DNA of 64,000 nt, taken from assembly GCF_051903065.1 (NCBI RefSeq), contig NZ_CP178438.1; one strand, written 5' to 3'. Shown in pieces: positions 24,976-25,205 of this stretch (positions within the stretch are counted from its first letter, which is position 1; each line of letters opens with the position of its first letter). Made by a program: the position numbers and the translations under genes. This DNA comes from Escherichia coli. Its GTDB lineage: Bacteria > Pseudomonadota > Gammaproteobacteria > Enterobacterales > Enterobacteriaceae. The notes below the pieces were generated by a model. It searched no databases. It saw only the letters and a list, made by a program, of their open reading frames with translations, and was not told where the DNA came from.

Positions 24976-25003
24976 ATCCTTTTCAGCCGCGTATTGGCTT
25001 GTT

Positions 25004-25020
25004 TGCAAAGCGGATGCCAG
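25004..25020 (-). promoter_or_regulatory. Sigma54 (-24/-12) promoter for rutA
   Basis: Minus strand reads cTGGCATccgcTTTGCAa, matching TGGCAC-N5-TTGCA with GG and GC 12 bp apart, about 30 bp upstream of the rutA ATG. Confidence 0.7.
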
Positions 25021-25205
25021 TTTTTAAAAAGTGAATGTTATTAATGTGTTAACATTGCGTTATCTAAAATATCTGGTAAAAAGTGGACTAAACGGTCAAA
25101 ACAGTTGCACATAAAACATGCATCCGTGCGCGATGAGAGTGCAGAAGGTCGAGGCCGGGCGGGGGTTTTGCTATCCTGTTGCCAATCTACAAGAGGGGAG
25201 AGCGC

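Follow-up and report, generated by a model that had tools for sequence, protein, structure and literature searches.

The spacer between the divergently transcribed genes rutA and rutR was analysed within a 64-kb stretch of Escherichia coli DNA, hereafter the window. rutB, rutA, rutR and putA are annotated around it, all of them on the minus strand except rutR, which is on the plus strand, and the spacer itself measures 230 bp. A query of 801 bp around it is 100% identical to E. coli strain ECNB21-M121, and the same query finds the rutA–rutR region in 5421 out of 5426 complete genomes. The locus is the one studied in E. coli K-12 by Shimada et al. (2007/2008), Nguyen Ple et al. (2010), Nguyen Le Minh et al. 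(2015) and Bonocora et al. (2015). The spacer differs from that of K-12 at only four positions (25125, 25057, 25046 and 25033), none of which is a specified base of a motif, and it shares with K-12 the exact sigma54 17-mer, RutR box and pair of NtrC-like sites. Functional differences from K-12 are nil and the annotation alone differs, with a RutA of 382 amino acids starting at 24975 in K-12 and one of 363 amino acids starting at 24918 favoured by PGAP and the comparative data.

A sequence-only reading of this DNA had described the spacer as a control region with a sigma54 promoter and a RutR operator. This description holds, since the features can be read off the sequence and binding to them has been published. 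The spacer is the already-published control region of the E. coli rutA-G operon and rutR, and both of its main elements are known; since it rediscovers, in the best-studied bacterium, a promoter and an operator known from the literature, the proposal as submitted carries little significance. What the comparison across genomes adds is the occurrence of the sigma54 motif in 80 out of 80 loci, together with a RutR box and two NtrC-type sites that lie at conserved, helically phased offsets. A conserved block in the rutA leader is possibly new, and it is the sole such item in the analysis.

The comparison is based on 80 orthologous rutA loci across Enterobacterales, obtained from one scan of species-representative genomes; for the sigma54 motif, these are the window and 79 orthologous loci. 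The spacer alignment comprises 28 Enterobacteriaceae spacers, and the conservation of the leader was assessed in 60 leaders from several families. The features are collected in Table 1.

Table 1. Features of the rutA–rutR spacer and the adjoining coding sequences, in window coordinates.
Feature	Position	Strand	Sequence	Basis or remark
rutA CDS, 363-aa form	23827..24918	-	MKIGVF... (protein)	Stop codon included; ortholog conservation, PGAP, PDB
rutA SD	24925..24930	-	GAGAGG	6 nt before ATG 24918
Predicted 5' leader, ~75 nt	24919..24993	-		Predicted +1 to ATG 24918
Conserved leader block	24955..24992	-	ACGCGG ... AAGGA ... GCAGGATGCA ... GCGCCCCGT	Conservation, 60 leaders
ATG 24975	24973..24975	-		Curated K-12 start (382-aa RutA); first codon of leader ORF MQDAAPR...
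rutA–rutR divergent spacer	24976-25205			230 bp
Sigma54 (RpoN) -24/-12 promoter	25004..25020	-	CTGGCATCCGCTTTGCA	ChIP-seq identity, gSELEX peak, conservation
Invariant AT-rich block	25036..25052		TTAACACATTAATAACA	-43 to -59; nearly invariant in 28 Enterobacteriaceae spacers
RutR box	25084..25099		TGGACTAAACGGTCAA	ChIP-chip, EMSA, operator mutant, conserved offset
Candidate proximal NtrC site	25106..25122		TGCATGTTTTATGTGCA	Centre ~-121; 3 mismatches to TGCACC-N5-GGTGCA
Candidate distal NtrC site	25127..25143		TGCACTCTCATCGCGCA	Centre ~-142; 3 mismatches in E. coli
rutR SD	25195-25202	+	GGGGAGAG	Before rutR CDS
rutR CDS	25206..25844	+		TetR-family repressor, 212 aa; ORF list and annotation

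The promoter facing rutA is read on the minus strand as TGGCAT-CCGCT-TTGCA (25019-25004), to which the published 17-mer adds the preceding C. The motif is oriented toward rutA with one mismatch to the consensus TGGCAC-N5-TTGCW, and its GG (25018/17) and GC (25006/05) doublets show the 10-bp spacing of -24/-12 promoters. The sequence-only reading had placed TGGCAT-N5-TTGCA about 30 bp upstream of the ATG at 24975; the motif is indeed present there, with its 3' end 29 bp from that codon. Upstream of rutA, the pattern TGGCA[CT]N5TTGC[AT] is found with zero mismatches in all 80 loci, and the five nucleotides between the two elements vary freely.

Binding has been reported by two approaches. Bonocora et al. 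(2015) identified by ChIP-seq a sigma54 site, OS10, that is the very same 17-mer on the minus strand and was assigned to rutA (PMC4591121), and Shimada et al. (2021) observed a gSELEX peak of the RpoN holoenzyme in the rutA/rutR spacer, at 71-73% (PMC8743547). The comparison with published rut promoter data thus returns an identical 17-mer. Control of the rut operon by NtrC and sigma54, as had been put forward from the sequence, is borne out by this sigma54 ChIP-seq site and by the NtrC ChIP-seq of Brown et al. (PMC4066584), discussed below. With regard to the start of transcription, a literature search did not find a mapped rutA start, and EcoCyc lists the promoter as predicted. The -24/-12 geometry and the rule that transcription starts 19 bp downstream of the motif centre (PMC4591121) place the predicted +1 at about 24993/24994. 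The published leader of 17-18 nt is likewise a prediction made against the K-12 annotation and not a measured value (PMC4591121).

The RutR operator lies further upstream. Counted from the predicted rutA start, its centre is at about -98.5, and 114.5 bp separate it from the rutR ATG. The box matches 11 out of the 14 specified positions of the 16-bp consensus dyad TTGACCAnnTGGTCAA, the key A4 and T13 included. A candidate RutR box had been noticed at 25082-25100; the site is real and published, but those coordinates were slightly off, and the box occupies 25084-25099 as read on the plus strand. Table 1 of Shimada et al. (2008) gives the same sequence, with its 11/14 match, for the site in this spacer that RutR occupies in ChIP-chip (PMC2475637). 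Nguyen Ple et al. (2010) have measured by EMSA a K_D of 8.6 nM for RutR, which is released by uracil with an I0.5 of about 9 nM (PMC2952853). Furthermore, Nguyen Le Minh et al. (2015) showed that an operator-constitutive mutant, with four bases of the box changed, abolishes the uracil-sensitive autoregulation of rutR (PMC4325133).

The arrangement is widely kept among relatives. A divergent rutR is adjacent to rutA in 75 of the 79 orthologous loci, and 73 out of 80 loci have a RutR-box-like sequence at a fixed offset. Where rutR is divergent, the box is present with at most three mismatches in 69 out of 75 loci; in six Buttiauxella loci the TTGACCA half alone remains, and four loci carry a box without an adjacent rutR. 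The centre of the box lies about 72 bp upstream of the sigma54 motif in Enterobacteriaceae, and about 81 or 62 bp upstream of it in Erwiniaceae, Yersiniaceae and their relatives. The offsets differ by about one turn of the helix, which maintains the rotational phase.

The effect of RutR binding is less clear for rutA than for rutR. The box is located downstream of the rutR transcription start (PMC4325133), and RutR thus represses its own gene from this position. A scan for consensus sigma70 sequences gave no match for a rutR promoter. With regard to rutA, one paper words the effect of RutR as activation (PMC2952853), and a rutR deletion did not raise rutA mRNA in exponential cultures in rich medium (PMC10891134). 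The effect on the rutA side is therefore conditional. The lack of an increase is expected if phosphorylated NtrC is absent under those conditions; a putative mechanism by which RutR would act on this side is given below.

Another RutR box, that of carAB P1 (TTGACCATTTGGTCCA, centred at -184.5), belongs to the same 16-bp dyad family and is also subject to uracil release. The affinities are similar, with a K_D of 9.5 nM for the carAB box and 8.6 nM for the rut box, although the latter is the poorer match to the consensus (11/14 compared with 13/14). The two boxes differ in their setting. At carAB, RutR is bound a long way upstream of a sigma70 promoter and has a positive effect, probably that of an anti-repressor, whereas at rut it represses rutR from downstream of the rutR start and the box lies upstream of a sigma54 promoter.

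Beyond the RutR box, two candidate NtrC sites are found in tandem. The proximal one is conserved as TGCnTG-N5-TGTGCA across the 28 Enterobacteriaceae spacers and lies 6 bp from the RutR box. The distal one shows two mismatches in most relatives, with the footprint TGCAC-N7-GCGCA in the same alignment; its offset from the sigma54 motif is fixed at 115-117 bp, and 21 bp separate the two candidates. Taken together, they have the layout of an NtrC enhancer, with at least two dyads about 100-150 bp upstream of the promoter and on the same helical face. In nitrogen-starved cells, Brown et al. (2014) reported a 94-fold NtrC ChIP-seq peak at the rut promoter, with a resolution of about 80 bp (PMC4066584). 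The rutA/rutR spacer is absent from the in-vitro NtrC gSELEX list at a cut-off of 40%. Since the gSELEX list lacks the spacer and the ChIP-seq peak is too coarse to separate the two dyads, the exact NtrC sites are placed by sequence and conservation, and we infer that 25106-25122 and 25127-25143 probably constitute the rut enhancer.

Between the promoter and the RutR box lies an AT-rich block with the aligned footprint TTAACAC.TTAATAACA (25036-25052) in the 28 Enterobacteriaceae spacers. Within it, at 25039-25051, is an IHF-like core, TATTAATGTGTTA, with a single mismatch to WATCAANNNNTTR that falls on the conserved C; matches of equal quality occur in 22% of shuffled sequences. A role of the block as an IHF site is offered as a suggestion. 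The block may also overlap the rutR promoter.

The overall layout resembles that of the classical NtrC-dependent promoters glnAp2, glnHp2, glnK and astC. These share with rut a -24/-12 promoter and tandem NtrC sites that lie 100-150 bp upstream of it and face the same side of the helix, as well as an intervening AT-rich segment, which is bound by IHF at some members. Induction by nitrogen limitation and NtrC ChIP-seq peaks are likewise common to all of them. Unlike these promoters, rut has a RutR site between the enhancer and the promoter, only 6 bp from the proximal NtrC candidate, and the repressor gene has its divergent sigma70 promoter in the same spacer. It further differs in that NtrC binding was not recovered by in-vitro gSELEX.

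The motif counts in the 64-kb window are all within the expectation from dinucleotide shuffles: 2 against 2.1 for the sigma54 pattern, 1 against 3.1 for the RutR box and 28 against 30.7 for the NtrC pattern. Motif enrichment was therefore dropped as evidence, and the case for function rests on other grounds. Taken by themselves, these counts would agree with the matches being chance resemblances without function. Nevertheless, the sigma54 core is present in 80/80 loci, the RutR box and the distal NtrC-like site are found at fixed offsets in most loci, and the published ChIP, EMSA and operator-mutant data concern exactly these sequences. Chance resemblance is thereby refuted, and the probability left to it is negligible.

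The position at which RutA translation begins is where the present analysis departs from the sequence-only reading, which had favoured the ATG at 24975, behind a leader of about 17 nt with an AAGGA ribosome-binding site. All 80 orthologs align from residue 1 of MKIGVF, and ATG AAA ATT GG is found at the position of 24918 in every one of them. A Shine–Dalgarno-like tetramer ends 6-7 nt before this conserved ATG in 74 out of 80 loci, and in most orthologs the sigma54 motif begins 93-107 nt before it. In 46 of the 80 loci, no in-frame start downstream of the predicted +1 extends RutA by more than two codons. The computed pairing with the anti-Shine–Dalgarno sequence is strongest at 24918 (-8.6 kcal/mol), followed by 24975 (-5.4 kcal/mol, with no spacer between the pairing and the codon) and 25008 (-1.5 kcal/mol). 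The AAGGA in question is at 24981-24977 and the ATG at 24975-24973, and the pairing abuts the start codon.

Variation within E. coli points in the same direction. A CGA-to-TGA change at codon 13 of the extension is carried by 15 complete E. coli genomes in which the annotated rutA is intact. Most of the polymorphisms seen in the 57-nt stretch change an amino acid (D3N, A5V, L8R, R13stop and E15K, compared with two synonymous changes). Moreover, in fold homologs the alignment begins only at residue 19-21 of the long RutA, and the 6SGG-series crystal structures of active RutA contain 363-364 amino acids (6sgg, 6sgl). RefSeq itself is split, with a curated K-12 record of 382 amino acids (24975) and a PGAP annotation of 363 amino acids (24918) in the 100%-identical genome.

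A 382-residue RutA starting at 24975, with a leader of about 18 nt and AAGGA as its ribosome-binding site, nonetheless has arguments in its favour. It is the start of the curated K-12 annotation, and the published 'distance 18' was measured to this ATG. In the window, and in at least 4378 E. coli genomes that carry the identical allele, the ORF from 24975 is open and runs in frame; across Enterobacteriaceae, an ATG or GTG with AGGA in front of it is conserved here, and the 382-residue protein folds and has been crystallised (5wan). Against this, the extension is not conserved as a part of RutA, given that its frame, length and stop vary and more than half of the loci (the 46 mentioned above) allow none; the stop allele coexists with an intact rutA, the Shine–Dalgarno pairing is weaker and abuts the codon, and both the fold homologs and PGAP agree with 24918. 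A main start at 24975 thus appears unlikely, although some initiation may occur there, and the comparison does not support the claim that it is the rutA start, nor that of a 17-nt leader. The most likely main start of rutA is the ATG at 24918, 57 bases downstream of 24975, with a leader of about 75 nt.

The 382-residue annotation in K-12 would be explained by the fact that the leader ORF happens to run in frame into rutA in E. coli. A still longer ORF, called mechanically from the TTG at 25008-25006, was correctly dismissed as overlapping the promoter: this TTG is that of the -12 element TTGCA and is excluded as a start. A literature search on the RutA N-terminus found nothing, and a search for initiation-site or ribosome-profiling data yielded only one statement on translation efficiency. 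The K-12 RutA start is probably 19 codons too long, which affects expression constructs, structure numbering and models of the rut leader. The published 18-nt leader depends on the K-12 annotation together with a predicted transcription start.

The stretch that is read as the N-terminal extension in K-12 overlaps a block of the leader that is conserved in its own right and stands at the extreme 5' end of the predicted transcript. In the 60 leaders, the core GCAGGA(T/A)GCA and the flanking GCG..G and GC..CG bases are at least 90% conserved, and genera from Escherichia to Pantoea, Erwinia and Serratia share the block. Enterobacter hormaechei, Enterobacter cloacae, some Buttiauxella, and also Yersinia have lost it by deletion, and in E. 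coli O157:H7 a G-to-A change destroys its GGA.

A stable structured RNA, such as a riboswitch or an attenuator, was considered as the main explanation for this block and rejected. Searched against Rfam, the rut leader has no match at E <= 10; its fold is not more stable than that of shuffled sequence (z = +1.39), and RNAalifold applied to the leaders returns no consensus pairs. A 6-bp stem drawn by hand is 80% paired and is supported by a single clade-level A-U/G-C switch, which amounts to weak covariation. A terminator-like match on the plus strand (24956-24972) has five pairs, with 0.5 such matches expected per shuffle, and was treated as chance. Where papers on Rho mention rutA, the lambda tR1 rut site is most likely meant and not this gene.

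According to one study, the translation efficiency of rutA-G rises under nitrogen limitation. This rise fits some post-transcriptional control and does not identify its type. The block of about 38 nt (24955-24992), consisting of the core, a second GGA upstream and GC-rich flanks, could conceivably be an undescribed post-transcriptional element of the rut operon, either a leader ORF or a hairpin with GGA in its loop that a CsrA-like protein binds, and this proposal is made tentatively.

As a leader ORF, the block would encode a short peptide, MQDA(A/T)PR, whose translation modulates rutA and which is fused in frame to rutA in E. coli by chance. Leader ORFs comprise 11-20 codons and often end near the rutA ATG or overlap it; after the first seven codons, their frame, length and stop vary. 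In Enterobacteriaceae, 21 distinct leaders all keep the T and G of the start codon, and the third positions of codons 2-7 vary three to four times more than the others, with entropies of 0.14, 0.12 and 0.47 for the three codon positions. One position of the ORF alternates between the Thr codons ACT, ACA and ACG, and AGGA is found just upstream of its start. The gain in translation efficiency under nitrogen limitation would also agree with an upstream ORF. Outside Enterobacteriaceae, however, the entropies are 0.36, 0.49 and 0.40, without codon periodicity, and the start codon is not conserved: TAG, TCG, CCG or CAG stands at its position in several genera in which the GCAGGAWGCA core persists. 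The signature of a leader ORF is accordingly seen in Enterobacteriaceae and not in Erwiniaceae, Yersiniaceae and others. Even within the ORF, no variation is seen at the third positions of CAG and GCA or in the CG of codon 5, a sign of constraint at the nucleotide level. In addition, the spacing between the Shine–Dalgarno sequence and the ATG of the leader ORF is poor, and the whole block has been deleted in several lineages. A regulatory upstream ORF is consequently a rather doubtful explanation for the block.

The persistence of the core with or without a start codon would be accommodated by a protein-binding RNA hairpin, UGC-AGGAW-GCA, with GGA in its loop and a second GGA about 10 nt upstream, in the manner of CsrA/RsmA targets. 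CsrA/RsmA-type motifs in CsrB include CAGGAUG and CAGGAAG, which resemble the leader core, and the SELEX consensus of CsrA is RUACARGGAUGU. As in the GGA hairpins of the CsrB repeats, the leader core can place its GGA in a 5-nt loop closed by G-C, with the second GGA about 10 nt upstream. GCAGGA(U/A)GC is at least 90% conserved in three families, the E. coli leader forms the small UGC-AGGAW-GCA hairpin in its minimum-free-energy fold, and Pantoea leaders carry two tandem copies of the core (GCAGGATGC and GTGCAGGAAGC). The condition-dependent translation efficiency of rut would also be compatible with a hairpin of this kind. Conversely, the match to the SELEX consensus is poor on the 5' side, and the leader motif differs from typical CsrA hairpins in lying off the rutA Shine–Dalgarno sequence (24925-24930), in being absent from some lineages and in being mutated in O157:H7. 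A literature search found no link between CsrA and rutA, and no Rfam family corresponds to the leader hairpin. The columns of its stem are all invariant, so that covariation cannot support it, and the wider stem offers one clade-level compensatory change. Nor does the z-score of +1.39 favour a folded leader, and the loss of the GGA in O157:H7 and of the entire block in several lineages weighs against the hairpin. A CsrA-like hairpin is therefore an improbable reading of the block.

As a whole, divergent control of rut by sigma54/NtrC and RutR, with RutA translated from 24918 behind a leader of about 75 nt, is considered highly probable. Published experiments show the binding of sigma54 and of RutR, the sensitivity to uracil, the role of the box in rutR autoregulation and the occupancy by NtrC in vivo. 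To these we add, by inference, the exact NtrC sites, a possible role for IHF, the action of RutR on the rutA side, the transcription start and the start codon used. In the proposed mechanism, sigma54-RNA polymerase would form a closed complex on 25004-25020 and transcribe leftward from about 24993, firing only upon activation by phosphorylated NtrC, which is made under nitrogen limitation. NtrC would occupy the two tandem sites (about -121 and -142; 25106-25143) and reach the polymerase by DNA looping, possibly aided by a bend at the AT-rich block (-43 to -59). Without uracil, a RutR dimer occupies 25084-25099 (centre -98.5). Situated between the enhancer and the promoter and 6 bp from the proximal NtrC site, it would hinder either NtrC oligomerisation or looping, until uracil releases it. 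The resulting rut mRNA would carry a leader of about 75 nt, with RutA translated from the ATG at 24918 behind GAGAGG; the ATG at 24975 would be a part of the conserved leader element and not of the conserved RutA N-terminus.

With regard to the biology of this operon, the conserved, helically phased spacing makes anti-activation by RutR, bound at -98 beside the NtrC enhancer, a testable proposition. If the leader element is real, it would explain why the K-12 RutA has been annotated 19 residues too long. Furthermore, a leader ORF or a hairpin would then add a translational layer to the transcriptional control of rut by NtrC and RutR.

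The conserved leader block of the predicted rut mRNA consists, in the alignment of 60 orthologous leaders (A1), of GC-rich flanks around the core GCAGGA(T/A)GCA, with a range of conservation that takes in Escherichia, Pantoea, Erwinia and Serratia. A comparison with Rfam returned no match for this block and no stable structure was found for it, while its reading as a short ORF is confined to the Enterobacteriaceae. The block is dispensable, since it is absent from several short-leader lineages, namely the Enterobacter hormaechei/cloacae group (L021, L022, L024, L025), Buttiauxella (L039, L040, L045, L053) and Yersinia (L041, L046, L074-L076), in which the start of the sigma54 motif is only 56-70 nt away from the rutA ATG, leaving leaders of about 30-44 nt.

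Features of the rut locus and the wider window, with window positions
Feature	Position	Strand	Remarks
Conserved leader block	24955-24992	minus	5' end of predicted rut mRNA; alignment A1
Variants of the divergent E. coli lineage (stop, L8R, A5V, E15K)	24939, 24953, 24962, 24933 (window equivalents)		L003, L083
Conserved element TTTTGCTATCCTG	25166-25178	plus	rutR 5' region; Enterobacteriaceae comparison
Second one-mismatch sigma54 consensus match TGGCACCCACATTGAA	50051-50066	minus	sole other such match in window

Within E. coli, variation is found both in the leader and in the extension of 19 codons with which RutA is annotated in K-12. A CGA to TGA change places an in-frame stop inside this extension in 15 of the 5426 complete genomes, which belong to a divergent lineage where the stop is accompanied by A5V, L8R and E15K. 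The remainder of rutA in this lineage retains about 99% identity, and its annotation is that of an intact gene. Furthermore, in O157:H7 strain 611 (L084), one of 1026 non-identical E. coli genomes, a G-to-A substitution at the equivalent of window position 24969 converts the conserved GCAGGATGCA to GCAGAATGCA, with loss of the GGA and a D3N change in the leader ORF.

With regard to the upstream control sites, the distance from the sigma54 motif to the centre of the RutR box groups at about 62, 72 and 81 bp across orthologous loci, and that to the distal NtrC-like site is about 116 or about 125 bp, so that both offsets change by about one helical turn per step. Paired RutR boxes, about 19 bp apart, occur in some Erwiniaceae and Serratia. 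At six Buttiauxella loci the box is reduced to a TTGACCA half, with the divergent rutR still present; two of these (L036 and L038) have long leaders of 159 and 101 nt, whereas those of the other four are short. The rutR 5' element, which reads CAGCATAGCAAAA on the rutA strand, is strongly conserved in Enterobacteriaceae. Judging from its sequence, the second sigma54-like match is probably not functional, because its mismatch hits the -12 GC.

In E. coli strain KFu015 (L086), an IS1B lies between the sigma54 promoter and rutA, at about window position 24972/24973. The insertion element replaces all sequence upstream of GCAGGATGCA, and rut expression in this strain is therefore presumably free of NtrC and RutR control.
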